In this document: positions 3,038 to 60,795 of the stretch, piece by piece
Position numbering within the stretch: position 1 is the stretch's first letter
How the letters are laid out: each line of letters begins with the position of its first letter
Assembly: GCA_963702095.1 (NCBI GenBank)
Contig: OY969706.1
Span: 832,001 to 896,000, forward strand
DNA length: 64,000 nucleotides
Direction of reading: 5' to 3'
DNA from: Candidatus Bathyarchaeota archaeon
GTDB lineage: Archaea; Thermoproteota; Bathyarchaeia; Bathyarchaeales; Bathycorpusculaceae
Notes under the pieces: model-generated
The model's database searches: none
What the model saw: the letters and a program-made list of their open reading frames with translations, nothing else
What the model was told of the DNA's origin: nothing
Made by a program: the position numbers and the translations under genes

Positions 3038-3235
3038 GTGTGGTTGTGTTTTTGTGTAGGAGAAGCAGGGCGGCGGCGTTTTAGCGTGCTTGTTTCTGCT
3101 TGTTGCTTGCGCCACAACCAGCCAGCAACCCAAAGCAGACGCAGACACAAAAAAGCAGCCGCCGATACAGTCCGTTGGTAGTTGTTGTGTATAGGCGGTT
3201 TTCACCAACAACAACTAAAGAAAACACTGAAAAAC
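3038..3235 (+). repeat. Dispersed structured repeat, family A/B copy A1
   Basis: TTTCTGC-TTG-N12-CAA-CCAGCCAGCAAC, 60-nt spacer, then GTAGTTGTTG-N18-CAACAACAAC-TAAAG. Confidence 0.85.
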
Positions 3236-3266
3236 AACAGCACACACCTAAGTCCCGTTTTCAAAG

Positions 3267-3530
3267 TCACGGTTTCTCGTAGGCTTCAATTAAGGCGGCT
3301 GCGGCTTTGGCTTTATCTGAAGCTTCGTTGAAACGGTACATGTGCACCCGCCCATACACATACTCCACGATGAGACCGTCTGACATGAGAATTTTGAGGT
3401 GCTCAACAGTCGAGGAGTAGTTCATGTTTATCCTTCGCGCTATTTCTGAGGCGTTTAACGAACGCAAATTATAGATTAATTTCAGGATTTTCATGCGGGG
3501 CTTAGACGAGAAAACCTCTTCAAACTCCAC
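3267..3530 (-). CDS. ArsR-like winged-helix protein
   Basis: FSSKPRMKILKLI...LNASEIARRINMNYSSTVEHLKIL. Coupled to cdc6. Confidence 0.85.
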   Translation of the reverse strand: MEFEEVFSSKPRMKILKLIYNLRSLNASEIARRINMNYSSTVEHLKILMSDGLIVEYVYGRVHMYRFNEASDKAKAAAALIEAYEKP

Positions 3531-4717
3531 TAAACCCCCCTCCCTTCCACGGCTAAACTGCCACGCAACTGCTTCTCCAACTCCACCGCAGGAATCGTTG
3601 GCAGCGAAATCTGGGTGGTTCTACCCCGAATCGATGCCTGAGCAACCTGCGTTTTTAAAATCCCCAGTTGGGCGAAGCGTTGAGTGTAACTGTAGATTTG
3701 GGTATGGCTGTTTGGGGTTTCGCCATATTCTTCGCAGATGACCTGATAGGTTTGCTCTATCTCTGTGAGTGAGGTGTAGGCTTCTTTGTTTTCGATGAAC
3801 GTGCGTGCGACGGCAAGCAAAAAGAGGCGTTCATGCAACCCCAAAGATTCCAGTTCACTGCGCCGCAAACTCGGCACAATACTCGAAACTGCTTGGCGCA
3901 CATACTCTGGCTCCAACCTCTCTGCGTCCTGTGCATCAGCGTACTTGCCGGCGCGCCACAACAATTCAATGCCGAACCGTGCGTTCCCCGTCTCGGAATG
4001 CGCCAACTCCGCAACCAAATCCACCACATCCCCGCCTACCACGCCGGATTCAAATGCCAAGTCCACGCGGTCGCCTAAGATGTCGATGAGTTCTGCTTTG
4101 CCGTAGCGTTCCAGTCGAATGATGCTGCGTTGCAGGGTGCTTTTTGCGCTTTCATCGAGTTGTGTGGTGGCGTCGAGGTTGCGCATTATGAAAATGAAGG
4201 ATAGCCGCTGCGGTTTGTCATGCCGCATTTCTTGGAAGCGGGTAAGTTTGTACACGGCGTCGCTGCCTTCTTTTTCTATTAGGCTGTCAAATTCGTCCAG
4301 CGCAAGTATCATGGTGGCGTCTTCTTCGTCAAGCACTTGCATCAAGGCAGAGAGGATTTCTTCTGCACCGTAGCCGCGGCTGGGATAGTTGGGTTGAAAA
4401 GCAATGATGGCTTGGTACAGAATCGGCTGGAGGCTACCCCGGTATTCGCGACAGTTAACGTGGACATAGCGGAATTTTATGCCTCGGCGGTTCGCCTGTG
4501 AAGTGAGGTTTGCGCCGAAGTTCTGTGCCAACACGGTTTTACCCGTGCCCACATCGCCAGTTAAGATTACTCGTTGCGCCATTTTGCCGGGGCATTGGAG
4601 GATAAAATTGAAGAATTCGCCCAGTATCCGTTGCTGGGTTTCTCGGTGGCGGAGCTGCGGGGGGATGTAGTTTATGTCCAGTTTGGATTCATCTTTGAAG
4701 ATGCTTTGTCGCGGCAC
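3530..4717 (-). CDS. cdc6: Orc1/Cdc6 replication initiation protein
   Basis: Walker A GDVGTGKT, YVHVNC, Walker B LDEFD, GNARFGIELL, C-terminal wHTH with RGRT. Confidence 0.95.
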   Translation of the reverse strand: MPRQSIFKDESKLDINYIPPQLRHRETQQRILGEFFNFILQCPGKMAQRVILTGDVGTGKTVLAQNFGANLTSQANRRGIKFRYVHVNCREYRGSLQPILYQAIIAFQPNYPSRGYGAEEILSALMQVLDEEDATMILALDEFDSLIEKEGSDAVYKLTRFQEMRHDKPQRLSFIFIMRNLDATTQLDESAKSTLQRSIIRLERYGKAELIDILGDRVDLAFESGVVGGDVVDLVAELAHSETGNARFGIELLWRAGKYADAQDAERLEPEYVRQAVSSIVPSLRRSELESLGLHERLFLLAVARTFIENKEAYTSLTEIEQTYQVICEEYGETPNSHTQIYSYTQRFAQLGILKTQVAQASIRGRTTQISLPTIPAVELEKQLRGSLAVEGRGV

Positions 4718-4816
4718 ATCTGTTTCCTCAGGAGTTAACGTGGAGTAAAGGTAATACTACAAATTCAAACAAAACACTAATAAATGCATTCTGCAATCCA
4801 TATTTTCCGACAAACA

Positions 4817-5398
4817 ATGATTCCGAAATATTTCTTTCTCACAAAAGGCGTGGGCAAACATAAAGAACAACTCCAATCCTTCGAATTAGCCCTCCGAGAT
4901 GCAGGCATCCAAATGTGCAACCTTGTCAGCGTCTCCAGCATCGTCCCACCAGGCTGCGAACTTATCACCCGAGAAAAGGGACTCAAAATGATTTCCCCCG
5001 GAGAAATCACCTTTGTCGTCATCGCCCGCAACGCAACCAACGAACCCCACCGCCTCGTCGCCTCATCAGTCGGCGTCGCCATCCCCAGCGGCAAAAACCA
5101 GTACGGCTACCTTAGCGAACACCACAGTTTCGGACAAACAGACGAAACCGCAGGCGACTACGCAGAAGACCTCGCCGCAACCATGCTTGCAACCACCATG
5201 GGTATACAGTTTGACCCAGAAACCGCCTGGGACGAACGCAAAAAAATCTTCAAAACAACCGGTCTCATCATCAAAACCGCCAACACCACCCAAAGCGCAG
5301 CAGGCGACAAAAACGGACTCTGGACCACCACTGTGGCAGCAGCAGTCTTGGTGCCAGCGGAAAACGGCGAACTAGTGAAAGAAAAGAAAAGCAAGTAA
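4817..5398 (+). CDS. pdaD: Pyruvoyl-dependent arginine decarboxylase
   Basis: [23 protein letters not shown] (SS autocleavage site), [17 protein letters not shown]. Confidence 0.93.
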
Positions 5399-5462
5399 GT
5401 TACTTGCCTGATTTTTCGCGTAAGTTTCGTCTTTTCTTTTTTCAGTTTTTCTCTGCAACTAT

Positions 5463-7405
5463 TTGCCGATTATTTCATACCTGAGCGACTATAGTGATTC
5501 TTACAGTTATATCCTTTTTTTGCCCTTCTTCGCAGGATTCCTTTTTTACTTAAAAAAAGACCTTGTTAATGCCTCAGTATCGGTAAACCAAACACAAAAA
5601 AGACAACTGCCGCAGTATTTTGACAAGCTTCTAGGAGTCATCCTGATTTTAACCGCAGTTATTTTCTACTGGTATGGCTCAAACACTTTTTACCCACTTG
5701 AGTACCACCTAAGCTAGCTTCCAATCTTCTTAGCAGGTGTTGTTCTGCTTCTCCTAAATCGCTATGCCCTTCGTGCTCTGATTTTTCCGATTCTGTTCCT
5801 GTTCTTTTTGGTTCCCATACCCTCCACTGTTCTCTATGCTGCCGGAGGAGCCATGGCTAATTTTAACACGCAAGTGGCTTTCGGCGTTTTAAGCGGTGTA
5901 CATGTGCCTGTTACTTTATCGACTTCTAATGGACCCCCACTTTGGTTCTAACAACTGCTGCGGGTACTCCCACTTCGTTCTCTGTTGACCTGCCCTGTTC
6001 CGGAATTTATTCGTTAATAGCGTTTGTCATGTTTGGGGCTTTCTTTGCGTTTGTCGCTCAGAATTCAGTATTTAAGAAGCTGCTGCTGTTTGCTTCCGGC
6101 TTCTTCGTGTTTGCTTTGCTTAATCTTCTACGTATTATAGGTATAATTTCAGTAGGTTACTGGCTGGGGGAAGAAGCAGCAATGTTTCTCCACTCCATAG
6201 CCGGATTAATCTTGATAGTTTTCGGCGCATTCTTGGTTTTAATAATATCTGATAAGCTTTTGAAAATGAAGATTCAGACAAGACCTCAAGAAATTCTGCC
6301 CTGCCCAAAATGCTCATCGAAGCCGATTAAGTTGAAGGCGTTCTGTGAGGGCTGCGGCAGATTTTTAGGGAGGAGAAACTGGGCGTTTTCTAAAAAGACT
6401 TATGTGACGATGTTGCTTCTGCTCTTGGCCTGTTTAATCGTTGTTCAAACGATTCAGGCGCCGACTTTTGTAACTGCTAAGGGCGAGATTGAGTATTCAT
6501 CAAGCAATGTGAACCAGGAACCAGTGAATCTTTTTCCCCCAATAACTGATTACCAACTCAGTTACCTCTACAGGGACACTGCTTATGAGCAGCTTACGGG
6601 TCAGGATTTGTCTGCAATGTACTATTACGGCGCTAAAAACAATTCAAAATTCAGCATCTACGCAGACATCGGCGTCGCGGGCAGTCTTACTGCCCTTCAC
6701 AACTGGGAATCCTGCTTAATATCCTACCAGACGGCTCAGGGACACAATCCTTTGGTCACAACTTTAGATCAAAGAGCAGTTGAGCTTCTCTCAGGCTCCA
6801 ATTTGGTTGCGCAGTTTCTCGCGTTCGACAACACGGATGGCACCCGACAGATAACGCTGTACTGGTTTGAGAAAGCAACCGTTAAAACAGGCGTAAGCGT
6901 GGAACAGAAGTACGTGCGTATTAGCTTGATTGTTCTTACCAACCAAACCACTGGCATCGCTGAACCGGAAAAAGAACTCTTCGACGCCGGGCAAGTTATA
7001 GCTGCTAAGTGGGAACCGCTTAAGAGTCAAGCGTTAATCAGCTTGGGTATTCCGGCTCAACAGGGGTTGCTGGCAGCGTTGAGCATCTTATTCGTCGGCG
7101 CATTCGCGGTGCAGTATTTTGCTGAGCAAAGAAAAATCGGCATCGACACAAAAATCTTTAGCAGCTACGGATCGGCAAAAGAGCGAATTGTTTTGGAGGC
7201 TATGAAGAACTTGTCTGGGAAAAACAAGAACCTGACAGGCGCAGAGATCACAGAGGCAGTTGCGGAGGCAAGGGGCAAAAAAGTGAGCGCTAAAGTGGTT
7301 CAGGCGGTTTTGCTTCGACTGGAACAGCATGGCTTTGTTAAGCGCAAGCTCGTTTCCATCGGCAACTCACCTAAGATCGTGTGGACGTATAGAAGCACAG
7401 AATAA
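5463..7405 (+). CDS. Exosortase/archaeosortase-family protein fused to Zn ribbon, EpsI-like domain and C-terminal wHTH (interrupted in this sequence)
   Basis: Multi-TM protein with VDLPCSGIYS (Cys), NLLRII (Arg) and FLHSIAG (His). Also CPKC..CEGC and HNWESCL. In-frame TAG at 5715-5717 and a frameshift in a C run near 5935. Confidence 0.8.
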
Positions 7406-7435
7406 AGCTGCTTCCACCTCTGAGGGCAAGAATGC

Positions 7436-7695
7436 GTTTTTTCTCTTTATGTGGGTGTGGCGTTTTGCGGGGTGCCACAGGACTGGTTGTGGGCTGCGTT
7501 GTGTTTGGGGGGTGCAACAGTTTTTAGCGTCTGTTTCGGTGTGGATCTGCGTTTTCTTCCACACGCCTTGCATGGCGGCATGTTGAGTTGGGCCCATTTG
7601 GATGTGGAAGCATGTACCGTCGCTTTTTACTGTGCGCGAAATCAATGAGGAGCAAGGAACAGCACAGTACAATCGAGCACTAGCATAACCCAAAC
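7436..7695 (-). repeat. Dispersed structured repeat, family C copy C1
   Basis: TTCTCTTTATGTGGGTGTGG...TGCCAC-N60-GTGTGG...CATG...CATGTTG, shared with 25111, 25845 and 27757. Confidence 0.85.
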
Positions 7696-7806
7696 AAAAG
7701 CACACCGCTATCACACTCCGAACGCAATCCCCAATAAACATCCCCACAATCCAAAAAAAGCATTAACAGAATCAGCTAACCAAACGAACTAATTCTAATT
7801 GCTATT

Positions 7807-9357: not shown

Positions 9358-9563
9358 TGGGATGCCAACTTTTTGCAGGCACTACGCTTCGATCAAATTT
9401 AAGCCTTTACGGTTTAAGGGCAATCGGGTGTATAACAGTCGATGTAGCAGTTTATTATACCGTTTCTGCAATAGGCAATCAACTTAGCTGGTGCCCTGAC
9501 TTGAAAAGAACTGCTTTATACTGGTGCTCTATACTTTCAAGGGTTCAAGGAGAGCAGTGATAG

Positions 9564-9893: not shown

Positions 9894-9938
9894 CGCCAAG
9901 TTTTTATCCGCAAGCCGCGGATATGGTGTTGATTCACC

Positions 9939-10821: not shown

Positions 10822-10881
10822 AGCAGTCCCAAAAGAAGGCATTGCATACGCCAAGATAAGAGTTTACCGAAAAAAGGGCGG

Positions 10882-12905: not shown

Positions 12906-13241
12906 TACTGGTCACTGTCCAATGCTGTTTAATATGCAAGAACCTCCTACCAAATATAAAAGCCTTATGAATACGGGTACTGTCAACTCTACGTCTGTTG
13001 CCTTTCCATGTAAACTTTCGTCTGTTTATGGGTTAAATAAAAGAAAGAATTGCGGGGCTAACCTTGTGATTTCTGTCGAGCCGAGCATTTGAGTTCTGAG
13101 CGATAAGCGGGTTGGCTGTCTGAGTGCTGAGCAAATACGGCTAGGAAAACGGATAAAAAATAGTAGAGGGATAGCGGAGAACTCACGCCTTTAATCATGC
13201 CCTGCTTGCACCGAGACAAGTCGCAATATTGTCCGTGAGTC

Positions 13242-13510
13242 TTATCCGCTACCCTTTCTCTCTTTGCTAGCGTTTTGAATCAGAGTTAACCACTTATTTT
13301 TGCCTTCAACTTTAATTCCACATGCTTCGGCTGGGGTTCTGCCTTCAAGTGCCATGTGAGGGCGAACATAGTTATGGAAAATCTGGTAGCCTTGAAGAAT
13401 AGGGGTTTCGTTGATTTTTAAGCCCCGCATTGTCTTTTCTCGGTCACGGATTTCACCATTCAACCGTTCCATTTTGTTGTTGTTCTTGTCGCCTCGGATA
13501 GTGATGTGCG
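13242..13510 (-). mobile_element. IS6-like DDE transposase C-terminal remnant
   Basis: HITIRGDKNNNKMERLNGEIRDREKTMRGLK...HNYVRPHMALEGRTPAEACGI...WLTLIQNA. The N-terminal part is absent. Confidence 0.8.
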
Positions 13511-13606
13511 CCGAATATGCTGAGTTTGGGTTCTTTTTACTGTAAAACGCTTTTAAAAAATTCAGTTGCGTAATTTTACTCCAGAAAAGAGGGGAAGGTT
13601 GGGAGA

Positions 13607-13897: not shown

Positions 13898-13931
13898 GTA
13901 ATATGCTTTTTGGGAAATTAAGCGCTAACCC

Positions 13932-14402
13932 TTAAGCCATTTTGCCCCGAAGCTTACTTAGCACCTCGTCCTCTACCCACTTCTCACCCTGCAATGTCAA
14001 CTTGAAATCAGGCTTGTTAGGATCAGGCTTGAACACTTGGCCACGCTTGGTCATTTCGTTTAGGCGGGCGGGCACCATAACTTTGATTCCGCTGGACTCC
14101 AAAAGCTTCTGCACCCCCGCGGCAGTGTTACGCCGATCGTCCGAGGCATAAAGGATCAAGCCCACGGATTCATAGTGAGTCAAGTTTTCCCTTGTAACGA
14201 TTACTGGTCCTTCGGTGGTGGTTTCGACGATGCCTTTTAGCTGCGCTCCAGAGGGGGTCAGGCGGTTGGTGACGAAATCAGAGAGTTTTTCGGTAAAGTC
14301 TTCAGGTATGCTGCCCAGCATGTCGAGGATTTCCTGGGGGGTTTCGCCTTCGATTATGACTTCGCCGAAAGGGGTTTTGATGCGGGCTTCAATGTGTTTC
14401 AA
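13932..14402 (-). CDS. Hypothetical protein with probable C-terminal wHTH
   Basis: Long ORF. VPARLNEMTKRGQVFK...FKLTLQGEKWV resembles a wHTH. Confidence 0.75.
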   Translation of the reverse strand: MKHIEARIKTPFGEVIIEGETPQEILDMLGSIPEDFTEKLSDFVTNRLTPSGAQLKGIVETTTEGPVIVTRENLTHYESVGLILYASDDRRNTAAGVQKLLESSGIKVMVPARLNEMTKRGQVFKPDPNKPDFKLTLQGEKWVEDEVLSKLRGKMA

Positions 14403-14532
14403 CGGTTGTGCCTCATAGGGCTATATGGTGTACTATGCTTTTTAGGATTTGCGACAGGTTTACAGCAAAGCGCCTAAACAAATGCTTATCAAGCTATCAC
14501 CCACACAACCAAAAAAGGAATCAAATGCAGGT

Positions 14533-14596
14533 TGGTTTCCAAGCCAGACTTGAACCGGCGACCCTTGGTGCATAAAGCCAAACGTCCTAATGGCTC
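14533..14596 (-). pseudogene. Degenerate tRNA remnant (Val-like, 3' two-thirds)
   Basis: Reverse complement reads TAGGACG-TTTGGCTTTATGCACCAA-GGGTC-GCCGG TTCAAGT CTGGC-TTGGAAA-CCA. T-arm and CCA are intact, but no 5' acceptor strand is visible. Confidence 0.45.
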
Positions 14597-14800
14597 AGGT
14601 GGTTGTGTTTTTGCTTAAGGGGTTGAGTGTTTTAGGGGTTAAGTTCGGGTTGCTTTGGCGGATCTTAGAGAAGATTGGTGTTGATTGCACAACCAGCCAG
14701 CAACGTGGATTAAACGCCAAAACAGAAGCAGCGTCTCTTAAACAAGCCGTTGGTTGTTGTTGTGCATAGCAGGTTTCTGCCAACAACAACTATAATAAAA
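14597..14800 (+). repeat. Dispersed structured repeat, family A/B copy A2
   Basis: CACAACCAGCCAGCAAC, 60-nt spacer, GTTGTTGTTG-N18-CAACAACAAC. Shares upstream GTGGTTGTGTTTTTG with A1. Confidence 0.8.
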
Positions 14801-14834
14801 CAACCAAAACACAAAATGAACCCCTAAAAAAGGG

Positions 14835-16741: not shown

Positions 16742-18093
16742 TATTGTTGACCTCCTTCATAGTGCAGCGTGCCTTCCTGTGGCAACGTGCGCGACGAGTA
16801 TTCGCCTGCAATGTTGGTTTTAAGCAGTTTTATGGCTTCTTGCGGGTCATCGGTTTGCCCCAGAGCCCACATGAGCTTCACTAAGCCTGTTTCGGGGAAC
16901 AAGTCCTCCAAGGGCACGACGCCAAAACTCTGCAAGTCGCGCCCAGTATCGTAAACGTTCATGTCTACGCGTCCCCAGATGCACTGCGAAGCCAACGCAA
17001 CCACCACGCCCTTGGCGGTTGCATGTTTGATTGCTTCGAAGCAGAATTTGCTCACATGACCCAAGCCTGAGCCTTCGAGTAAGATGCCTTTGAAGCCTTT
17101 TTCGACATAAAAGTCGATTACCGAGGGGTCAAGTCCAGGGTAGAATTTGACCAATGCCACTTTGTCGCTGAAGTCTGGTTTGAGGATCAGTTTGCGTTTG
17201 GGGTCACGTTTCTGGTAGGTGTCACCGGTCATGGTGACTTTGAGGTCTTGGATTCTGGCGATGGGGAAGCCGTTGACGGATTTGAAAGTGTCCCTTCTGC
17301 TGGTGTGGCACTTGCGTACTTTGACGCCTCGGTGTACAACGATTGAGGTGTCCGAGACGGTTTCATGCATCGCTAACCCAACCTCTGCGAACGGACCCTC
17401 ACCCGCGGCTTTGACTGCGCCTATGAGGTTGGTTGCGGCGTCGCTGCTGGGTCGGTCAGAAGACCGTTGGGCGCCAACTAAGATAACTGGGACTGGGAGG
17501 TTCTGCAACGCGAAGCTCAGTGCCGCTGAAGTGTAAGCCATGGTGTCTGTGCCATGGGCGATTACAACTCCGTCCACTCCCTCCTTAATGCGTTGGGCAA
17601 TTTTTTTAGCGAGTTCCGTCCAGTCCTGCTGCCGAAGGTTCTCGCTGTAAATGCTAAACACAATTTCGGTGTCCACACGGGCTAAATCAGCAAGTTCAGG
17701 GACGACGCCGTAGAGGTCGCTTGCGGACATGGCTGAGCGGACGGCGCCTGTTCGGTAGTCCACGCGGCTGGCGATGGTGCCGCCTGTACTCATGATGACC
17801 ACGTGTGGAAGTGCAGGGTTCTGTTTGGGCAGCGGCGGCGCCTCGAATTTGGGCGGGGACCCTTTACCGATTTTCTCCACTTGCACGTCCGCTGCGGCGT
17901 CTATGCCGATGTTGTAGCCGCTTTTCATTTTGATGATGATGGCGGAGCCTTCGCCGAAACGTGGGATCAAGATGCCCTCGTAGGTTTTGCTTTTGCTGGT
18001 GATTTTTAGGATGTCGCCGATGTTGCAGTCGGCTGCTTTGAGGAGGCGCAGTGCCATGCCCCGGTAACCTGAATCGTCAGCTTTGTCGCTCAT
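16741..18093 (-). CDS. gatD: Glutamyl-tRNA(Gln) amidotransferase subunit D
   Basis: STGGTIASRVDYRTGAV, HGTDTMAY, GAQRSSDRPSSDA, KCHTSRRD. Confidence 0.97.
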   Translation of the reverse strand: MSDKADDSGYRGMALRLLKAADCNIGDILKITSKSKTYEGILIPRFGEGSAIIIKMKSGYNIGIDAAADVQVEKIGKGSPPKFEAPPLPKQNPALPHVVIMSTGGTIASRVDYRTGAVRSAMSASDLYGVVPELADLARVDTEIVFSIYSENLRQQDWTELAKKIAQRIKEGVDGVVIAHGTDTMAYTSAALSFALQNLPVPVILVGAQRSSDRPSSDAATNLIGAVKAAGEGPFAEVGLAMHETVSDTSIVVHRGVKVRKCHTSRRDTFKSVNGFPIARIQDLKVTMTGDTYQKRDPKRKLILKPDFSDKVALVKFYPGLDPSVIDFYVEKGFKGILLEGSGLGHVSKFCFEAIKHATAKGVVVALASQCIWGRVDMNVYDTGRDLQSFGVVPLEDLFPETGLVKLMWALGQTDDPQEAIKLLKTNIAGEYSSRTLPQEGTLHYEGGQQ

Positions 18094-18184
18094 CTAAAAG
18101 CCTCTGTTTCTGTGGAAAGATATGGGTCTTAGTCTTTAACCTTATCGTGAACAAACGTTAACTAAGTATCTTAGGTCAAATTTT

Positions 18185-18326
18185 TATTTGATGTTGTTGC
18201 TGAGAAGCCCCTATACACAACAACAACCTGTGGCGTTTGTGGTGCAATGCTTTTTGGGGGCAGCGTTTGGTTTAGTTTGCTGATTGGTTGTGAAGCAAAA
18301 CGCAAGCAGAACAGATTTTTGATCTA
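18185..18326 (-). repeat. Dispersed structured repeat, family A/B copy A3
   Basis: Reverse complement: TAGATCAAAAATCTGTTCTGC-TTG-N12-CAA-N60-GTTGTTGTTG-N18-CAACAACATC. Confidence 0.85.
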
Positions 18327-18369
18327 CTGGTAAAACCAAATAAGAGAATACCCCGTTGTAAATAGTTCG

Positions 18370-19752
18370 ATGCACATGAAGACTGCTATGGGGTTAGTTG
18401 TACTGTTGGTCGCTTTGCTGCTGGCTGCTCCATTCTTTGCCTCAGCGGCTCAATCCACACAGTTGGATTGGAGCAGAACTTACCCCCGAGCGTCCGAAAC
18501 AACAAGCGACAACATACCAATCACCCACACTGACGGAGGAGCAGCCTTTACCCAAACAGGCGACGGCGGATACCTAATCGTTGCAAGCCTCAGAGACTAC
18601 TTTTACCGTGGGGAACATACAGGCGGCGACGAATCATACAAAGGGAGTATGATAAAAACTAACTCATCTGGAGCGGTGGAGTGGCAAAGGGAGGTATCGC
18701 CCTCGATTTCGCTGAATGCACAGGAAGTTTATTGGGTTGCGGATACGGGTTATGTGGTTGTTGCCGGCTACTACATTTACCTATTTAATGAGCGAGGGCA
18801 ACTGGAGTCGAACGTAACGTTCGGCTGCCAAATCTTCGGAGTTCAGCAAACAAGCGACGGCTATGTGTTTGTCTGTAAAAGCCAAGATTTCAGCTTCATA
18901 GGAACCGACAGGGAATTCAATGTCCAATGGAACAAGTCACTCAGTTTTGTCCCACACGATGGCGACATGGCACTTGCAGAGGCCAGTGGCAGCGGTTACA
19001 TCTTAGTTGGTTACACATACAACTTCCCCACCACAGCTGGCGTCAACTCACCCAACATTTGGATTATCAAAACCGATGCAAACGGTGATATACGGTTCAC
19101 TAAAAGCTACAATTTCTACGACCAATTAGGCATAAAACAGACAAACCCCATCCTACTCGACAATGCATTTGTCGTTTCCACAGGCGACGGGTATTTCCTC
19201 GCTGGAACAGCCGAGTTCAGGGACAGCAACTTTAACTCGCCCTTCTTGGTCAAGTTGGCTTCGGACTGCAACTGGTTGTGGAGCCGAACCTACGCTTCGA
19301 GCCCCCGCGACAACAGCTTCGTCTATACAGCCGTCAAAACGCCCGACGATGGATTATTCATTGTTGGGTCTTATGCTTCTCAGCCCATCGGATGGCACTC
19401 TAACACCTACGACGTGTCACTGCTGTTCAAGATTAACGCCTTAGGCGACGTTACACTGAACCAAACGTTTAGCAGCGTGGAGGACTATCATCCAGGTGCT
19501 GCATCTGATGTGCTCGTTATGGGCGATGGGGCTTACGCAGTTTTGGGTTCACTAGACAATTCAATTTGGCTTGCCAAGTTTACACCAGACACCGCAAAAG
19601 CCTCGGGTTCTCCAGAGATAAACCCTTCTCAGTCGTCAATAATCTGGTCTGCAGCAGCCATTGTTGCGGCTGTAGTTGCCGCTGTTGTGGTAGCCCTGTT
19701 TTACGTCAAGAAACACAAGAAGACACCGAATCAACCATACAGCAGAGTTTGA
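18370..19752 (+). CDS. Secreted beta-propeller-like surface protein with C-terminal TM anchor
   Basis: Signal peptide. Repeats of QTxDGGY/IKTDxxG/W.RTY. TM followed by KKHKK. Confidence 0.82.
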   Translation: MHMKTAMGLVVLLVALLLAAPFFASAAQSTQLDWSRTYPRASETTSDNIPITHTDGGAAFTQTGDGGYLIVASLRDYFYRGEHTGGDESYKGSMIKTNSSGAVEWQREVSPSISLNAQEVYWVADTGYVVVAGYYIYLFNERGQLESNVTFGCQIFGVQQTSDGYVFVCKSQDFSFIGTDREFNVQWNKSLSFVPHDGDMALAEASGSGYILVGYTYNFPTTAGVNSPNIWIIKTDANGDIRFTKSYNFYDQLGIKQTNPILLDNAFVVSTGDGYFLAGTAEFRDSNFNSPFLVKLASDCNWLWSRTYASSPRDNSFVYTAVKTPDDGLFIVGSYASQPIGWHSNTYDVSLLFKINALGDVTLNQTFSSVEDYHPGAASDVLVMGDGAYAVLGSLDNSIWLAKFTPDTAKASGSPEINPSQSSIIWSAAAIVAAVVAAVVVALFYVKKHKKTPNQPYSRV

Positions 19753-24090: not shown

Positions 24091-24175
24091 GCAGGGGTCG
24101 CCGAGCCAGGTCAAAGGCGTAGGCTTCAGGAGCCTATCCTGCAGAGGTTCGTGGGTTCGAATCCCACCCCCTGCA
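24091..24175 (+). tRNA. tRNA-Leu(CAG)
   Basis: Acceptor stem GCAGGGG/CCCCTGC-A, anticodon arm TAGGC-TTCAGGA-GCCTA, long variable arm, T-arm GTGGG-TTCGAAT-CCCAC. Confidence 0.96.
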
Positions 24176-24988: not shown

Positions 24989-25110
24989 ACAAAACACCTC
25001 TTTTAATTTAATTAGATAAATACTGGATGGTTCAAAGAAATAAATATTGTCTTATAAAGATACATTTTCTAAAGTAAGATTTCGTCCAAATTCGTAATCC
25101 CCTCCACCAC

Positions 25111-25314
25111 TTTTGGAAAAATGTGTTTGGTATGCACCGGCACACCCACATGCCGACCATTCCAACATGGACCCATGCAGAGCATGTGGAGAAAAACACA
25201 CTTCCCACACCAAAACAGACGCCAAAAAACAATGCTTCCCCAAAAAAACAATCACTCACACAACCTTTCTTGTGGTGCCCCGTAAACTGCCACACCCACA
25301 TAAAGAGAGAGAAC
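25111..25314 (+). repeat. Dispersed structured repeat, family C copy C2
   Basis: CAACATGGACCCATGCAGAGCATGTGGAGAAAA...CCCACAC-N61-GTGGTGCCCCGTAAACTGCCACACCCACATAAAGAG. Confidence 0.85.
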
Positions 25315-25490
25315 ACAAACTGTTAAAAAAGGGGATGAGGCGGGCGATATCTCACTGAGTTGCGGGTTCGAATCCCTTTTTGACCCTTCGTGTTAGATTA
25401 ATATGAATAAAAATAGCAAAATAAGATGAAAAAAGAGTCTTTTCGGTGGTTCGCCGAGTCTTTGTTACTTGAGCAGAAACGTTGCGTAAA

Positions 25491-25709: not shown

Positions 25710-25844
25710 TTACTCGGGTTTAGTTGGTTTGACTCAGATTAAAACTTTATTGCTTATCGATCCTTCAACGGGAAGGCCCCAAAACATTGAGGAAAACAAA
25801 ATGTTGACGATATAATAGGTTCGAATCCCACCCCCTGCACCTTG

Positions 25845-26045
25845 TTTTTGAAAATGCGTTCGGCATGCAACGCCACATCCACACGTCAACCAATCCAACA
25901 TGAACCCATGCTGGGCATGTGGAGAAAATCACTCTTCCCACACTGAAATAACAATAGGAATTCAGCCCAAACCCAAAAAGCAATCCAATTCTCAAGCAAT
26001 CTCGTGGTGCTCCGTAAACCGCCACCCACATAAAGTGAGAAAAAG
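25845..26045 (+). repeat. Dispersed structured repeat, family C copy C3
   Basis: CAACATGAACCCATGCTGGGCATGTGGAGAAAA...CCCACAC-N60-GTGGTGCTCCGTAAACCGCCACCCACATAAAGTG. Confidence 0.85.
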
Positions 26046-27706: not shown

Positions 27707-27756
27707 CTATAATTCTATCACCAGTTCTCAAACCAACATATCACAGAACACAACCT

Positions 27757-28010
27757 GTTCTTTCTCTTTATGTGGGTGTGGTGGCTTATGGGATGCCACA
27801 AGAAGGCAGCAGAGAGCGGTTGCTTTTTGCGGAAGCATTGTGTTTCGGCTTCTGTTTCGGTGTGGGATAATCGATTTCTTGCACACATGGTGCATGGTTC
27901 TATGTTGAAGCGGTCGGGATGTGTGTGAATGCATGTATCTTTTGTCTTTTTAGCGTGGCAGTGAATGGTAATGGTCAGCGCATTGCAAGCGGACACTAGC
28001 ATAGCCCAAG
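27757..28010 (-). repeat. Dispersed structured repeat, family C copy C4
   Basis: TTCTCTTTATGTGGGTGTGG...TGCCAC-N60-GTGTGGGA. Shares a distal CACTAGCATA.CCCAA with C1. Confidence 0.85.
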
Positions 28011-36152: not shown

Positions 36153-36310
36153 ACCGCTTCTTCTCCGACTTTAACTCTCACATTTCAGGTTTGGTTGGCT
36201 TTAAGGGTTTAGGGTCAAGTTTAGGTGAACGTTAGCTGCAACCAGAGGGTTGACAGAAAAACTAACGGACACAAATGGAAATCAAAAAGGCACTAATGGA
36301 ACAAGAATTT

Positions 36311-36446
36311 GCCTGTTCTGCTTGCGGAAAGCTCCACAACCAGCCTGCAACCCTTTGGCGTTGCAGAATAAAAAAACACAGTTGCCCCTTTGCCCACTGG
36401 AAGATGATGAGTAAGGGCGGCTCTGCCTTCATCTAACAATAGAAAA
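36311..36446 (+). repeat. Dispersed structured repeat, family A/B copy B1
   Basis: CTGTTCTGC-TTG-N12-CAA-N60-GAAGATGATG-N17-CTTCATCT. Confidence 0.85.
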
Positions 36447-36470
36447 AAAAATCAGGCACACAAAAAGGGT

Positions 36471-46415: not shown

Positions 46416-46526
46416 TAAAACCAGTCTAATTCACCAGTTAACATAGAATCGATTCAATATATGAATGGTTATGGAAGACAGATACGGTGCGCCTCTAATC
46501 GTGAATCAAGTTTTGGTCGGTTCGCT

Positions 46527-46674
46527 TTTTTCTTTAGTTGTTGTTGCCGAGAACCGCTTATACACAACAACAACCAGCCGGCTGTGTAGGGCGTTGTATT
46601 TTGGTACAGGCTTCCACTTCAGGTTGCAGGCTGATTGTGCCGACTTCTGCAAGCAGAACAGCAATTTTGATCTA
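46527..46674 (-). repeat. Dispersed structured repeat, family A/B copy A4
   Basis: Reverse complement: TAGATCAAAA..CTGTTCTGC-TTG-N12-CAA-N60-GTTGTTGTTG-N18-CAACAACAAC-TAAAG. Confidence 0.88.
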
Positions 46675-46682
46675 TGTAGAGT

Positions 46683-50944: not shown

Positions 50945-50949
50945 TCGTT

Positions 50950-51663: not shown

Positions 51664-51686
51664 CCCAAGCGGTGATTTAAACGTTT

Positions 51687-53804: not shown

Positions 53805-53820
53805 GTTTTCGCCAACAAAA

Positions 53821-54996: not shown

Positions 54997-55019
54997 AAAA
55001 ACAGATCCTATAACAGTAA

Positions 55020-55158
55020 ATCGTTGGTTCTGCTTGAGGATTTGCCCTCAACCAGCCAGCAACCCAACTCCATTGCAGAACACAAAATACAGCTATCTGC
55101 CAAGCCCCCAGAAGAAGATGAGTAAGGGGCGCTCTGCCATCACCTTAAACTAGAAAAA
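55020..55158 (+). repeat. Dispersed structured repeat, family A/B copy B2
   Basis: GTTCTGC-TTGAGGATTTGCCCTCAA-N59-GAAGAAGATG-N17-CATCACCTT-AAACTAGAAAAA. Confidence 0.85.
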
Positions 55159-55201
55159 CAAAAAAACGAATCAGCATTTTTGGCCGCAGCAAAATCAGAT
55201 G

Positions 55202-55864
55202 CTAATATTCCCAGTTAACGTCCTTTTTTATCACGTGCGCCGGCACTCCAGCGGCTAAACATTTTTCAGGAATGTCTTTGGTGACAACTGCGCCCGCACC
55301 AATAACTGAGCCATCCCCAATTTTAACGCCTTTTAGTACCAGCACCCGGCGACCTATGAATACGTGTCGTCCTATTTCTATTGGCGCTGCCACAACTGCC
55401 CCCTCTCTTGCTATCCCATGAAAGTCTGTATCAAGGAGTTCGACATCCCAGGAAATAAGGCTGTTCGACCCGACCTTGATACTCTTTGATGCGATAATAA
55501 CCGTGTTCGAGTTAACGACAACATTATCTCCCAGTTCAATACATGCGTTTTTCTGTGCGCCAATAACTACCCCTTTGCCTATTCGAGCGCTCCCGTTAAT
55601 TACTAGTTTGCTGCCCTCATCCATCCTCAGTTGGCAGGGTGCAGTCGACGGAAAAAAGTCAGTGTATCCTATTCCCAGTGTAAAGTAGCCGTTGTTTATG
55701 ATTTGAGCCTTTTTATGTATGGCTAACAATGTTTTTCCATCAATCAGAAATGAATCAAACAAAGACTTGTCTGAGGCGGTCACTCCGTTCTTGGAGACTT
55801 GATAGCTCTTATAGATGGTTCTGGGACCTATGCCGTTTTTCCTTATCATAGCCCAATTAACCAT
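55202..55864 (-). CDS. Hexapeptide-repeat O-acetyltransferase
   Basis: DTDFH, LKGVKIGDGSVIGAGAVVTKD, AGVPA. Confidence 0.9.
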   Translation of the reverse strand: MVNWAMIRKNGIGPRTIYKSYQVSKNGVTASDKSLFDSFLIDGKTLLAIHKKAQIINNGYFTLGIGYTDFFPSTAPCQLRMDEGSKLVINGSARIGKGVVIGAQKNACIELGDNVVVNSNTVIIASKSIKVGSNSLISWDVELLDTDFHGIAREGAVVAAPIEIGRHVFIGRRVLVLKGVKIGDGSVIGAGAVVTKDIPEKCLAAGVPAHVIKKDVNWEY

Positions 55865-55867
55865 TTT

Positions 55868-56989: not shown

Positions 56990-57171
56990 GCTTACTCGCC
57001 TGCAGAGGTGAAAAATAATCGCTTTTATGTTGAAAAAGACTTTTTTGCCTGAATTTGTATTGTTTTTCTTTGCGAAGTATACTTGACAATACGGTCTAAT
57101 TTGTTTTTCAAAATAATATTTAAATGATCTAGCCTAAAGAGGGTTCTAAATTCAGGAAGAGAGAGAATATA

Positions 57172-58743
57172 ATGAATACAAAACTATTAGCGAACACAGC
57201 ACACGCCCTAAACCACCGAAAACTCGCAAAGCCACTCGCCCTCTGTATCGCCGCACTCTTTGTCATCAGCGCAGTTTCAATACTCGCAATGTATCCAGTA
57301 AAGGCACAGACAACCACTACCCCTGCACTCCAAACCTCAGGCTCATCCATCGTGGATGCCAACGGAAACGTTGTGTACCTCCGCGGCATTGGACTCGCAG
57401 GAATGGCACCAGACATTATCCTCTGGGGTCAAGGAGCAACAGACAACTGGGGCACACAGTGGAGCACAGACCCCGCTGTAATGGACCAGACATTCTCAAC
57501 CATGCAAAGCCAATGGCACATAAACATGATACGCGTCTTCGTGTACCCAAGCTGGTACTACCGAGACAACATTGTTCCTGCACAAGAAGACCCCGCAGGC
57601 CAAGCAGCAAAAACAACTCCAATCAGCACCAAAGCCTACCTCCAAACCATATGCAACGAAGCAGCCAAATACGGAATCTACGTCGACATAGTCCCCTACA
57701 TGCTAACTCCATCCACAAGCTCCTTTGGCTCAGACCCATACGCCACACCCAACTTCGGTTGGCAAGGTCTACCAATGAGCGGCTGGGATGATGCAGGAAA
57801 CAGATTCCTTCAAGCCGCAGGATACGGCAACAACGAATTGGGCTTCTGGAACTGGTTCTGGACAGACATGGCAAACAACCTAAAGAACTGTCCAAACGCA
57901 ATCTTTGAAGCGTGGAACGAACCCAACTTGGGCTCTGACACCGATGCTATTCCAGCAGGCTACATGACTTACCTAACAACTATGTACAGTGCAATTAGAG
58001 CAACAGGCGCAACCAACCTAGTCATGATGCAGTGGCACATGGGCTGGTTCCCCAACGGCTACGGCAACGACCTCAGCTGGTGCAAACAAATCGCAACAGC
58101 CATACCAAGCGCAACCAACCTAGTCTACACCACACACCTCTACTACTATGCACCCACCGACTTGACTTCATACTGGGCAAATGACTACAACGGATTGAAA
58201 ACTCAACTGCAAACAGGCATCAACAGCATGGGCGTCACAGCACCATTGGTCATCAACGAAGAAGGCTCATGCCTCGCATACACATCGAACAGACAAAACG
58301 ACTGCACCTGGTGGAGCAACCTTCTGTTGGCACAACGTGACTTAGGCATAGGCGCAGGTGCATACTACTGGCTAAGCGAATCTGGTTTAGGCCCAATCTA
58401 CGCGGGCGAAACAATGCTAAGCAATGGCTATGCAGCAAACGATATGGGACAAGCATTCATCAACGCCTACCAAGCATCAAAGGCAACAGTGGCATCAACA
58501 GCAACAGCAACACCCGAACCGACAGCTACTCCAACATCAACCCCGACTGCAACACCCGAGCCAACTCAGACCCCGCAACCAACTGAGGATCCAACACTGG
58601 CACCAACAACCCAACCAGCAGAACCCACCCAACCATCAGCAGCATCGCACAACATTCAAGTCGTACACGGATTCTTCTATCATCACTGGTTCATCTTCTA
58701 CTGGCCACAGTACAACTCGTGGTTCGCGTTCCACCTCTGGTAA
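57172..58743 (+). CDS. Secreted GH5 glycoside hydrolase with P/T linker and aromatic C-terminal tail
   Basis: DANGNVVYLRG, INMIRV, FEAWNEP, TTHLY, VINEEG. Ends HGFFYHHWFIFYWPQYNSWFAFHLW. Confidence 0.9.
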   Translation: MNTKLLANTAHALNHRKLAKPLALCIAALFVISAVSILAMYPVKAQTTTTPALQTSGSSIVDANGNVVYLRGIGLAGMAPDIILWGQGATDNWGTQWSTDPAVMDQTFSTMQSQWHINMIRVFVYPSWYYRDNIVPAQEDPAGQAAKTTPISTKAYLQTICNEAAKYGIYVDIVPYMLTPSTSSFGSDPYATPNFGWQGLPMSGWDDAGNRFLQAAGYGNNELGFWNWFWTDMANNLKNCPNAIFEAWNEPNLGSDTDAIPAGYMTYLTTMYSAIRATGATNLVMMQWHMGWFPNGYGNDLSWCKQIATAIPSATNLVYTTHLYYYAPTDLTSYWANDYNGLKTQLQTGINSMGVTAPLVINEEGSCLAYTSNRQNDCTWWSNLLLAQRDLGIGAGAYYWLSESGLGPIYAGETMLSNGYAANDMGQAFINAYQASKATVASTATATPEPTATPTSTPTATPEPTQTPQPTEDPTLAPTTQPAEPTQPSAASHNIQVVHGFFYHHWFIFYWPQYNSWFAFHLW

Positions 58744-58777
58744 TTAGAAAAAACAATCTTCCCCTTCCTTTTTGTCT

Positions 58778-59677
58778 TCAAGTTTCTATTTGAGCTTTCA
58801 TGAAACCCAAAGTCCACGCCGCATGTTTAAACCCATAATGCAGTGGCAGAAGAAACACTTGTTTTTGACGCAGAAACCTATACGCTGGAAACGAAAAAAG
58901 AATCCCTGTTACCAAACCTGCAAGCGGAGTCATACGAGGCAATGAGAAGGCGCCTCGGGTTTTCTGGAAGCTTTTTTGGCAGCCGTAGCCATACCAGTAA
59001 TATTTCATCCACAGATCCTTGGGTTTTGATAAACCGCTGTGCAGTTCGTAGAGTTCCCCGTCGTTTGGTTTTAGCAACCAACCTGCACTTTTGATTCTCA
59101 AGACTAAGTCGGAGTCTTCGCCTGCGCCCTTAATGGTTTCGTCGAAGCCATTAGCCTGCCGCACAGCCGAGGTTCGGAAGGTGGTTCCGCCTGTGCCGAT
59201 TAGTTTTTCGGTTTTCCAAATAAAATTTTTGGGTTTGCCAAAGCGCTCATGGATTACAATGTAGGGGGTAACTTCTAAACTCAAGATGACGTTGCCTGGG
59301 ACAGTTCTAAAGACCCCTGCAGTTATGCCTACTTTGGGGTTCTTCTCTAAGGCTTCAACTTGGGCTGCCACGTATCCGGGGGTGAGGATTTCGTCGGCGT
59401 CCACAAAGAGGAGGTATTCGCCGTCAGCCATATCCACAACTTTGTTGCGGGCGTGCCCCAGTCCCATCCATTGGGACTTGAATGTTTTTACGCGGTCGCC
59501 AAGTAGCTGAGTGTAATGGCTGATTATTTGGGGCGTGTGGTCTTGGCTGCCGTCGTCTACAAAGATGATTTGGATTCGGTCTTGGGGGTAGTTTTGGTGT
59601 AGGATGCTGTCAACGGCGTCCGCAAGTAGGGCTTCGCCGTTTCTGACGCAGATGCCGACGGTAACAAGCGGCTTCAC
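58778..59677 (-). CDS. Glycosyltransferase GT2
   Basis: VTVGICVRNG, VDDGS.D, FVDAD, GFD..I.GAGED. Confidence 0.92.
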   Translation of the reverse strand: MKPLVTVGICVRNGEALLADAVDSILHQNYPQDRIQIIFVDDGSQDHTPQIISHYTQLLGDRVKTFKSQWMGLGHARNKVVDMADGEYLLFVDADEILTPGYVAAQVEALEKNPKVGITAGVFRTVPGNVILSLEVTPYIVIHERFGKPKNFIWKTEKLIGTGGTTFRTSAVRQANGFDETIKGAGEDSDLVLRIKSAGWLLKPNDGELYELHSGLSKPKDLWMKYYWYGYGCQKSFQKTRGAFSLPRMTPLAGLVTGILFSFPAYRFLRQKQVFLLPLHYGFKHAAWTLGFMKAQIET

Positions 59678-59680
59678 AAC

Positions 59681-60613
59681 TCATCCCCTCTGCAATTTTT
59701 TGTGCCCATAGCCATTGCGGTGAGCACCATAGAACCCAAAAAGCCACGCAAAACGCTTGTAAGTGTAATGTATAGGCAACAGAAAAGTTGCTGCGCGGTG
59801 GGTTAACAGGTAGGCATCGGGTGTACGTAGAACGCCTGCTATAAAGCCTCCGAGTGGAGTCAATTTCCAGATGTTAATTGAATCAGGGTCCTTGTGATGT
59901 ATGTAGTGTGCGCCGCGTCCATACCAGATGTATTGGCGCCAAAGTGACAGCCAAGATGCCCGCGTGGATTCCGTGAATCTCTCTTTCGTTGTTTTTAATT
60001 CCCAACCCTTTACCTTGACACGGTAAGCCATCTCGGTGTCTTCTGCAGCGCCGTTAATGCTGGTGTCAAAGCCTCCGACTTCGCGAACTGCCTCCACACG
60101 GTAGATTGCGCCTTCAGCCCCGGGAAGCCACCCGAATTTAGATGCTTTCGCACGCTGCTCAAAAACTGAGTCAACCGCGTAAACGACGTTTTCTAAATCC
60201 GCGGCTAAACCATGTCCATAGTGTACGTTGTATTTTCCAGCGGCAATCCCCACTTCGGGATGCTGCTCCATAAACGCCACTTGATTCTGCAGGTAATCGC
60301 CGGCGAGAGTCATGTCTGCGTCCAGCCAAACGATGTATTTGCCACTGGCTTTCTGCACAACCATCTGCCGAGCAATGCCCAAGCCGCTGCCTTCCTGAAA
60401 AATCTGGAGTTTGCCGAAGTCTGCTGTTAGGTTGCTTTTGATTATCTGTAGTGTGCCGTCTCTGCTGTTGCCGTCAACCACTATTAACTCGGTTTTTTCG
60501 GCTGGGAATGTTTGGTAGCATAGGCTATCGACGGCTTTTTTGATTGTTTCTGCGCCATTTTTTACACATAAACCAACTGTAACTATGAGTGATTGGGAAG
60601 TCAAATTTTTCAA
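59681..60613 (-). CDS. Glycosyltransferase GT2 (tandem paralog of the 58778 gene)
   Basis: VTVGLCVKNG, VDGNS.D, WLDAD, GGFD..I.GAAED. Confidence 0.92.
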   Translation of the reverse strand: MKNLTSQSLIVTVGLCVKNGAETIKKAVDSLCYQTFPAEKTELIVVDGNSRDGTLQIIKSNLTADFGKLQIFQEGSGLGIARQMVVQKASGKYIVWLDADMTLAGDYLQNQVAFMEQHPEVGIAAGKYNVHYGHGLAADLENVVYAVDSVFEQRAKASKFGWLPGAEGAIYRVEAVREVGGFDTSINGAAEDTEMAYRVKVKGWELKTTKERFTESTRASWLSLWRQYIWYGRGAHYIHHKDPDSINIWKLTPLGGFIAGVLRTPDAYLLTHRAATFLLPIHYTYKRFAWLFGFYGAHRNGYGHKKLQRG

Positions 60614-60645
60614 CTCAATCGCCCGCTAACGGTAGGTCAAAATTT

Positions 60646-60795
60646 TTATTTTTCTAGTTTAAGACGAAGAGAGAGTCTGCCTTGCTCATCATCTTCTTAG
60701 GGGCTTTGCAGACGGTTCTGTTTTGGCATGTGCAACGCCAATGGGTTGCAGGCGGGTTGAGGGCAAATCCTCAAGCAGAACAGCGGATTTTTGAT
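60646..60795 (-). repeat. Dispersed structured repeat, family A/B copy B3
   Basis: Reverse complement: ATCAAAAA..CTGTTCTGC-TTGAGGATTTGCCCTCAA-N60-GAAGATGATG-N17-CTTCGTCTT-AAACTAGAAAAA. Confidence 0.88.

Follow-up and report, generated by a model that had tools for sequence, protein, structure and literature searches.

A dispersed repeat family of one Bathyarchaeia genus, probably miniature inverted-repeat transposable elements with a conserved interior

The stretch of DNA analysed here (the window) is 64,000 nt long and corresponds to G000:C1:832001-896000 of the genome of a Candidatus Bathyarchaeota archaeon (G000, hereafter the source genome), a single contig of 2,937,366 bp with 46.8% G+C. 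It contains seven copies of a repeat of about 150 bp, which an earlier model-made reading of the letters alone (the sequence-only reading) had noticed and for which it had named three candidates: a structured non-coding RNA (ncRNA) family, a single-stranded DNA (ssDNA) hairpin element moved by an HUH enzyme, or a chromosome-organising array of protein-binding sites. The seven copies are where that reading had placed them: a covariance model (R2) built from them and run against the window matches each one, with E values from 1.9e-26 to 2.9e-33 (Table 1). [quoted passage not shown] Of the three candidates, the non-autonomous mobile element was thus right in kind, but not in the ssDNA and HUH mechanism proposed for it. 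Bathyarchaeia are abundant, uncultured archaea of sediments and soils, and their mobile DNA has barely been described.

Table 1 Repeat copies, their inverted repeats and the transposase genes of the source genome. Coordinates are window positions unless a contig is named.
Feature	Coordinates	Strand	Description	R2 score (bits)
c3085	3085..3235	+	A-type stem, core only; no inverted repeat within 6 mismatches	142.7
c14680	14660..14810	+	A-type, left end degenerate	115.3
c18185	18170..18320	-	A-type core	129.4
c18185, left terminal inverted repeat	18317..18333 (G000:C1:850317-850333)	-	TTACCAGTAGATCAAAA, 1 mismatch to consensus	
c36311	36307..36459	+	B-type stem	129.5
c46527	46517..46667	-	A-type	138.3
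c46527, weak left inverted repeat	~46665-46681		5 mismatches	
c55020	55019..55170	+	B-type	136
c60646	60637..60789	-	B-type core	136.3
c60646, left terminal inverted repeat	60789..60805	-	TTATCAGTTAATCAAAA, 2 mismatches	
c60646, right terminal inverted repeat	60626..60642	-	TTTTGACCTACCGTTAG, 4 mismatches	
SWIM + DDE_Tnp_IS240, full gene	G000:C1:1161795-1162949			
SWIM + DDE_Tnp_IS240, full gene	G000:C1:1962826-1963932			
SWIM zinc-finger + DDE_Tnp_IS240, C-terminal fragment	13162-13553 (protein match 13257-13529)	-	residues ~281-372, 70% identity	

A profile hidden Markov model built from the seven window copies returns 182 matches in the source genome (E<0.01), far more than chance would give, 170 of them near full length (at least 110 model positions), so that the description as a seven-copy element holds within the window and not genome-wide. 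All matches together cover 24,318 nt, or 0.83% of the genome. They are evenly spread (6-20 copies per 200 kb), and the near-full-length copies lie on both strands (92 plus, 78 minus) with a median pairwise identity of 74%. Apart from 5 pairs of neighbours less than 300 nt apart they are dispersed singly, with no arrays, and most stand between housekeeping genes such as gatD and gatE. The midpoints of 151 of the 170 copies are intergenic, as had been said of all seven, and the other 19 fall inside short open reading frame (ORF) calls of the crude in-house ORF finder on which these classes rest. Relative to flanking ORFs of at least 100 aa the copies sit in convergent (45), co-directional (43 and 30) and divergent (33) settings, that is, in random orientation. 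The element does not encode a protein: the reverse strand of some copies resembles a lipobox signal peptide, but the best of the six frames is stop-free in just 70 of 170 copies, and copy lengths vary by single nucleotides (modes 136, 134 and 135 nt). Nor is there an autonomous copy among the 12 partial matches, which are heterogeneous and have no transposase as a neighbour, save for one left half that lies ~500 nt from a fragment of a SWIM-DDE gene.

The interior shows a fixed architecture. From the left, the complete element consists of an inverted repeat of at least 17 nt, about 10 nt of spacer, the head block GTTCTGCTTG, a hairpin-like block TTG-N12-CAA and the block CAACCAGCCWGCAAC; these are followed by an A+C-rich variable stretch of 48 nt, a stem-loop of 9-14 bp, CTAGAAAAA, an A-run and the right inverted repeat. 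The arms of the stem-loop are built of G-W-W triplets, which in subfamily A take the form GTT/AAC and in subfamily B the form GAA or GAT with TTC or ATC. Strong conservation is confined to blocks (GTTCTGCTTG, CAACCAGCCWGCAAC, CAAAA, the stem arms and CTAGAAAA) with near-random stretches in between. The spacing of these blocks, which had been described as fixed from the window copies, is borne out across the genome: N12 is 12 nt in 130 of 136 anchorable copies, CAACCAGCC lies 63 nt from the 5' stem arm in 124 of 142 copies, and the variable stretch is 48 nt long in 124 of 142. The composition of the variable stretch (A 35.2%, C 35.0%, G 17.8%, T 11.9%) is strand-asymmetric in every copy, whichever way the copy is oriented.

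The sequence-only reading had described the repeats as lacking terminal inverted repeats. Just beyond the boundaries that it drew, we find a 17-nt terminal inverted repeat, which reads TTAWCAGTAGATCAAAA at the left end and appears as the reverse complement at the right end. Allowing up to 5 mismatches, it is present at the left end of 24 and the right end of 28 of the 170 copies in the source genome, and at both ends of 9; wrong-orientation controls gave 2 and 4. Two of the window copies, c18185 and c60646, show it clearly. The latter measures 180 nt from repeat to repeat, within the range of 171-214 nt (mostly 180-190 nt) seen across the genome. The two repeats of one copy agree with each other at 11.56 of 17 positions, compared with 11.89 +/- 0.33 for shuffled partners: a repeat fits its own partner no better than another's, so it is conserved as sequence, in the manner of a protein site, and not as a helix. 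It is also neither a palindromic target nor a separate genome-wide motif, as exact 9-10-mers of it are not over-represented (7 and 6 against 4.1 expected), no uninterrupted palindromes were found and the left repeat is missing where the site of c55020 is empty. Outward of the 17 nt, the sequence is often C/T-rich on the left and G/A-rich on the right.

A scan of 61 genomes of the genus, at no more than 1 mismatch, detected the same inverted repeat in 15 of them (a reversed-pattern control gave 0-2 matches per genome). The richest material comes from G050, with 43 repeat matches, many of them perfect and paired 185-190 nt apart. Of the G050 repeats inspected, six sit 131-221 nt from a contig end, which is the signature of a recent, high-identity repeat, and the family explains contig breaks in at least this one metagenome-assembled genome (MAG). 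The repeat pair is not tied to one interior: it also encloses interiors of 187, 264, 286, 427 and 432 nt that do not match the core model at E<=0.1, and at three further loci (L195, L200 and L203) a diverged core lies between or beside the same repeats. Across six elements with differing interiors the inverted repeat is invariant. MITE families that share a transposase classically look like this, with a single pair of repeats enclosing various unrelated interiors. Directly adjoining one repeat of several young elements in G050 (L195, L196, L199 and L203) is a C-rich motif (CCTCCCCTCCC-like, or its G-rich complement), which may extend the repeat outward or else represent a favoured target.

Some features of the ends bear on the insertion site. 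Positions 2-3 of the 17-mer are almost always TA, followed by A or T at position 4. In some young copies the 4-mers beside CAG...CTG are identical on the two sides (TTAA/TTAA and ATAA/ATAA; G050:C98, G024:C33 and e173549p), and in others they differ. TTAA is palindromic, and the flanks of the young copies fit a 2-bp TA duplication and a 4-bp duplication alike.

The distribution of the core is narrow. Of 24 congeners 13 carry it, in numbers that range from 1 to at least 75; the other congeners have none, and it is missing from all 16 genomes of 15 other genera of the order. A further search gave 87 core matches in G050 (a lower bound, as at least 87 diverged copies are present) and 15 in G076. 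In a pattern scan of one genome per species, at least 96 stretches matched; 78 of the 80 listed belong to archaeal MAGs, nearly all labelled Bathyarchaeia or Bathyarchaeota, and the other 2, no more than chance would give, are bacterial. Among viral contigs the head pattern of the element had 0 matches. The family serves as a lineage marker of this one genus.

Comparison of the window with relatives, a check that the sequence-only reading had proposed, uncovered empty sites for three copies. The closest relative, G007, is 84-88% identical at the nucleotide level in the flanks and has six of the seven window sites occupied, among them those of c3085 and c60646. The site of c14680, which is filled in the source genome and G007, is empty in four of five relatives (G014, G005, G003 and G016). 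The intergenic spacer that holds c55020 is 206 nt long in the source genome versus 22 nt in G005 and 38 nt in G014; these empty sites lack the left repeat. At c46527, which is common to the source genome and G007, the site in G014 lacks the copy and is ~187 nt shorter. The DNA gained thus amounts to ~170-190 nt, which is longer than the core and includes the left inverted repeat. In the intergenic region that holds c60646, G014 carries a weak copy turned the other way. Copy c18185 lies within a segment of 1.68 kb (~18075-19752) that is missing from G007, G014, G003 and G016. G007 in turn has an extra copy where the source genome holds 633 nt of unrelated sequence (12975-13606) containing the transposase fragment of Table 1.

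In sum of properties the elements look like MITEs: they are short (below about 500 bp), non-coding, bounded by terminal inverted repeats and present in many dispersed copies that differ in presence and absence between relatives. Archaeal examples of MITEs include the SM elements of Sulfolobus. Prokaryotic MITEs such as Coxiella QMITE2 and Sulfolobus SM share with the present family a length of ~190 nt, a non-coding, multicopy and intergenic nature and terminal inverted repeats, as well as size and interior variants on the same repeats, lineage-specific bursts, a majority of truncated or degenerate copies and a resemblance to repetitive extragenic palindromic (REP) sequences once the repeats are lost. 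The family differs from them in that no parent insertion sequence (IS) or transposase with its repeats was found, and in its conserved blocks at fixed spacing around 48 hypervariable nucleotides and its two stem subfamilies. The Correia elements of Neisseria and the enterobacterial repetitive intergenic consensus (ERIC) type of MITE are repeats of ~100-150 bp with inverted-repeat ends at TA-containing sites, and are maybe co-transcribed or regulatory; the likeness to our element is one of description only (size, inverted-repeat ends, TA sites). In the available text of a review, Coxiella QMITE2 shows a comparable decay, with just 10 of 78 copies full length and the truncated ones having lost their repeats and resembling REPs, and archaeal MITEs are listed only for Sulfolobus, Halobacterium, Haloquadratum, Desulfurococcus and a few others (PMC10969869). 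A literature search (supplements not covered) returned no MITE described for Bathyarchaeia and no paper that links Bathyarchaeia or Bathyarchaeota to miniature inverted repeats, and the accessible part of a 2026 survey of archaeal IS does not mention Bathyarchaeia.

If the family is one of MITEs, its spread could be pictured as follows. A transposase supplied in trans would bind the inverted repeats and move the element into A/T-rich intergenic sites, with TA or (T/A)TAA as the target, to which the invariant TA beside the repeat points. Once an element has inserted, its inverted repeats would decay, and interiors would be overwritten with those of other copies, either through gene conversion or through repair of the gap that excision leaves. 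Such replacement would explain both near-identical cores in unrelated flanks and different interiors at sites shared by sister species. The conserved blocks and the stem would then be cis-sites selected for propagation of the element much more than for the host, and the contrast between conserved and variable columns would mainly reflect what propagating lineages must keep.

Several observations weigh against the MITE interpretation, and we group them here. The first concerns the enzyme: no transposase sharing the inverted repeats was found in a search that covered a handful of Pfam families and few genomes, and the single-contig source genome has no multicopy IS. It also gave no match to PF01797 (Y1_Tnp), PF07282 (TnpB), PF01548 (IS110 DEDD), PF01609 (DDE_Tnp_1) or PF00078 (RVT_1), and PF13358 (DDE_3) was not found in G000, G050, G046, G024 or G007. 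This disposes of an IS630-type DDE_3 enzyme in those five genomes, which the TA-flanked repeat had suggested, of a reverse transcriptase in the source genome, for which the A-rich tail might have spoken, and of the IS110 genes that the sequence-only reading had proposed to look for near copies. The sole DDE family present in the source genome combines a SWIM domain with DDE_Tnp_IS240, with two full genes that are 53% identical plus fragments, and its presence does not go with that of the element: in G014 the element is there at least 75 times and the transposase has no match, and G053 has 7 SWIM-DDE matches and neither a core nor a repeat match. SWIM-DDE copies have no shared conserved flanks, their ends show no element-like sequence and no remnant of the element lies beside the window fragment, so we reject this enzyme as the mover. 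The family is itself multicopy in the congeners G053 and G069. With so few Pfam families and genomes covered, the enzyme may belong to a family not yet recognised or be missing from the assemblies of the species in which the element is bursting; it may also have been lost from the source genome.

The second concerns the insertion event: a target-site duplication is not established. Searches of the source genome with the flanks of 107 loci from other genomes returned shared or rearranged sites only, with no clean, high-identity empty site. The third concerns the copies themselves. Most of those in the source genome have no recognisable inverted repeats, yet their core blocks are 89% identical between random copies, and a fixed, indel-free length of 48 nt would not be expected if dead copies were simply decaying neutrally.

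The fourth is the behaviour of interiors at shared sites. Across the six same-site pairs of the source genome and G007, 267 of 280 conserved columns are identical and 121 of 188 variable ones. Two of the pairs look vertically inherited: variable columns are identical at 28 of 31 positions (c14680, which looks to have been inherited together with its G007 counterpart) and at 28 of 32 (c46527), much as in the flanks, and conserved columns at 42 of 47 and 43 of 47. In the other four pairs the interiors differ far more than the flanks (86-88% identical) do, with 11-22 of ~31 variable columns identical (15 of 32 at c36311, where the G007 copy has a chimeric stem, and 11 of 31 at c55020), while 44-46 of 46-47 conserved columns agree; this is close to the level of random same-subfamily pairs, which are identical in 0.40 of variable columns. 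These divergent interiors call for an added process. When two further vertical-looking pairs from other genomes are included, 171 of 187 conserved and 101 of 120 variable columns are identical; change is nearly equal in the two classes, so constraint in situ is weak at most, although the changes (16 of 187 conserved versus 19 of 120 variable columns) do hint at some. Nine pairs of near-identical cores (94-99%) lie mostly 5-60 kb apart in unrelated flanks, and in most of them the similarity begins at ~(G)TCTGCTTG and ends in the A-run. One such pair has flanking right repeats that are homologous and yet diverged, a sign that the core was converted between copies already in place and not newly inserted. 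The indel-free and strand-biased 48-nt stretch, an interior that outlasts the repeats and the replacement of interiors remain incompletely explained by a MITE.

These same features would fit a different division of labour, in which the transposon is the vehicle only and the interior is a functional single-stranded module (RNA or ssDNA) composed of a conserved protein-binding scaffold and a swapped, A+C-rich segment with a fixed length of 48 nt. We regard this as improbable. If true, ~170 "programmable" small RNAs or recombination substrates would be dispersed over the source genome, together with an unrecognised partner enzyme and a dedicated process of copy-to-copy replacement.

A related view takes the core for a structured ncRNA module or a set of small RNA genes, with the head block, the CAACCAGCC block and the stem-loop as the protein-binding scaffold of an unstructured 48-nt segment, either carried by a transposon or exapted by the host. 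We think it unlikely as well. The strand asymmetry of the variable stretch, the fixed geometry and a core that is better conserved than the inverted repeats are all consistent with it, and so is the folding of the A+C-rich strand, which is more stable than that of its complement (mean z -2.08 vs -1.32; first 60 of the 170 copies, mononucleotide shuffles) and alone carries the G-U pairs of the stem (UG:40 and UG:19 at two pairs). Across 104 distinct sequences from several genomes, in an alignment fitted to the structure and hence favouring it, the terminal helix is 81% paired, 7 of its 9 pairs change on both sides and its covariation score is 0.212 against 0.095 +/- 0.007 for shuffles. These two-sided changes are, however, all UA/AU flips tied to the split into subfamilies A and B, and when the partners are slid by -3 the pairing is still 64%, because of the triplet periodicity of the arms.

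The two stem types described from the window do exist and do pair. In the source genome 106 copies belong to B, 60 to A and 4 are unassigned (n=170), with the arm combinations BB (84), AA (51) and BA (5), the rest being unclear. All diagnostic columns co-vary with one another, unpaired ones included, so the stem changes represent essentially one subfamily split and not, as had been claimed, four compensatory events. Watson-Crick covariation is lacking inside the subfamilies: within B, each of the 22 strongest listed mutual-information pairs spans 5 columns or fewer, and the 4 of 22 listed within A that are further apart (8, 11, 15 and 87 columns) have a Watson-Crick fraction of just 0.05-0.48. 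Other genomes contain chimeric stems that join an inner 5' arm of A type to a 3' arm of B type; these have lost the inner pairing and persist. Covariation of the first hairpin, also claimed earlier, disappears on the larger set: at its fourth pair, 53 of 136 copies have a standard base pair compared with 59.9 expected by shuffling, and 68 of 104 sequences are unpaired there, so that hairpin 1 is unsupported.

Other searches for an RNA were negative. RNAalifold yields no consensus structure on the 170 copies (mean pair probabilities <=0.31), and the comparison with Rfam suggested by the sequence-only reading returned no gathering-score match at the copies, the sole such match in the window being a tRNA at 24091-24175; permissive scans of two copies gave best E values of 1.7 and 4.3. 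The upstream flank has no conserved promoter-like signal, orientation is random and several close species have 0 copies. The variable stretches have no clear targets in the genome, their best matches averaging 30.3 bits versus 27.8 for shuffles, so that any guide-like complementarity is only slightly above the shuffled level. The ncRNA candidate of the earlier reading thus finds no positive support here. The terminal hairpin is a real, maintained feature that is conserved mainly as sequence, and support for a selected RNA fold is weak. Of the proposal that selection acts on fold and geometry rather than sequence, the strikingly fixed geometry stands, while the fold reduces to an A/B switch and conserved arm sequence.

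The HUH candidate holds that the core alone is a hairpin ssDNA element, similar to REPs and bacterial interspersed mosaic elements (BIMEs), to the palindrome-associated transposable elements (PATEs) derived from IS200/IS605 or to IS91, and that the outer repeats are incidental. It would account for the asymmetric ends, for a subterminal stem-loop near the 3' end and an intrinsic strand asymmetry, and for the near-identical pairs, most of which are similar from ~(G)TCTGCTTG to the A-run within unrelated flanks. BIMEs with their REP-associated tyrosine transposases (RAYTs), and PATEs, also resemble the family as dispersed intergenic repeats in both orientations with a conserved stem-loop and strand-specific features, but the present element far exceeds a REP in length and carries inverted repeats at its outer ends. 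The enzymes fit poorly. Y1_Tnp, the Pfam family that includes RAYTs, was not found in the high-copy G005, G007, G014, G024, G015 and G008 or in the source genome, where TnpB was not found either, and among the 24 congeners it was detected only in species with 0-4 copies (G002, G004, G011, G013, G016, G018, G020, G021 and G023); Y2 (IS91 type) occurs in two zero-copy congeners only. As the DNA gained exceeds the core and includes the left repeat, as orientation shows no bias along the chromosome and as the diverged right repeats of one near-identical pair point to core conversion, we consider an HUH-moved element very unlikely.

Accessory genes adjoin some copies, which brings to mind the attC recombination sites of integrons: like attC, which relies on geometry and pairing over sequence and is associated with accessory genes, the element might be the site at which mobile gene cassettes recombine. 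Three differences in gene content between the source genome and relatives adjoin element ends, namely at c18185, c3085 and c55020. The segment 1680-3094 (1.4 kb; ORFs 1917-2639 on the plus and 2675-2941 on the minus strand) is found in the source genome only and starts exactly at the head of c3085, and 643 nt directly beyond the tail of c55020 (55166-55808, most of ORF 55202-55864) are lost in G007 and kept in G005 and G014. A 2.9-kb two-gene cassette duplicate is edged by a half copy and a full copy, and interiors are exchanged between copies. attC sites form tandem cassette arrays by way of IntI, whereas the copies here are dispersed (an integron-type integrase was not searched for), have no orientation rule towards adjacent genes, mostly lie between housekeeping genes and conserve their stem arms as sequence. 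Transposon-mediated adjacent deletions, or recombination between repeats, would yield such indels just as well. An attC-like role is a faint prospect. The copies do mark hot spots of gene gain and loss.

The least probable of the readings weighed is that the copies are host protein-binding sites (for nucleoid or chromosome organisation, as insulators or as terminators) under selection at each locus: their even spacing, intergenic position and conserved blocks at fixed distances agree with it, and T-runs, which can stop archaeal transcription, are present on the reverse strand and could do so here, but tail sides face gene ends no more often than not (75 against 76), strand runs along the chromosome (84 versus 85.4 +/- 6.5 expected) show no polarity, close congeners have 0 copies, relatives have empty sites and vertical copies evolve nearly neutrally. 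On the strand-run count an orientation linked to replication or polarity is also rejected, and the chromosome-organising array of the sequence-only reading is not supported.

Three traits are unusual for a family of MITEs: an internal geometry that is fixed, a hypervariable segment with a strand bias and, at shared sites, interiors that have been replaced. Together with the missing transposase they present a defined target for finding a possibly unrecognised archaeal transposase. In screens for ncRNAs and regulatory motifs the family should be masked.

A number of further observations concern the surroundings of the copies. The segment with c18185 carries an ORF of 460 aa (18370-19752, plus strand) that begins with a signal peptide, ends in a membrane anchor, belongs to no Pfam family and has several distant paralogs in the genome; the ORF is absent together with c18185 from G007, G014, G003 and G016. 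Directly left of c14680, a 151-nt segment (14483-14633) is present in the source genome and not in G007, and its minus strand resembles by eye the 3' half of a tRNA (T-arm and acceptor), as an integration remnant might; ARAGORN detected no tRNA gene at 14380-14700. A stretch of 82 nt at 2523-2604 is 100% identical to G007:C57:12456-12537, in genomes that are otherwise ~86-88% identical, and its G007 counterpart sits ~70 nt from a copy of the element.

Elsewhere in the source genome, the two-gene duplicate mentioned above (L023/L024; G000:C1:197822-200718 and 988056-990947) is 87% identical between its copies and has the left half of the core at one boundary and a full copy at the other. Its proteins of 381 and 520 aa are secreted or anchored and have no Pfam family, and the second copy is frameshifted; as neither ORF is a transposase, we rejected the duplicate as an autonomous form of the element. 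A large terminase subunit gene (Terminase_6N) lies beside a partial copy at L047 (G000:C1:2735002-2736447), which is probably part of a provirus. A three-copy repeat of 1.1-1.8 kb (G000:C1:650439-652146, 1112601-1114273 and 231533-233136; 83-85% identity) encodes proteins of 332 and 185 aa without Pfam families and may be an integrated plasmid- or virus-like module. Finally, the window contains a second, unrelated dispersed repeat of ~100-250 nt near the tRNA at 24091-24175, with copies in both orientations at 7433-7693, 25099-25317, 25832-25948 and 27756-28009 (families D2, D15-D17, I2, I4 and I5) that are 70-83% identical.

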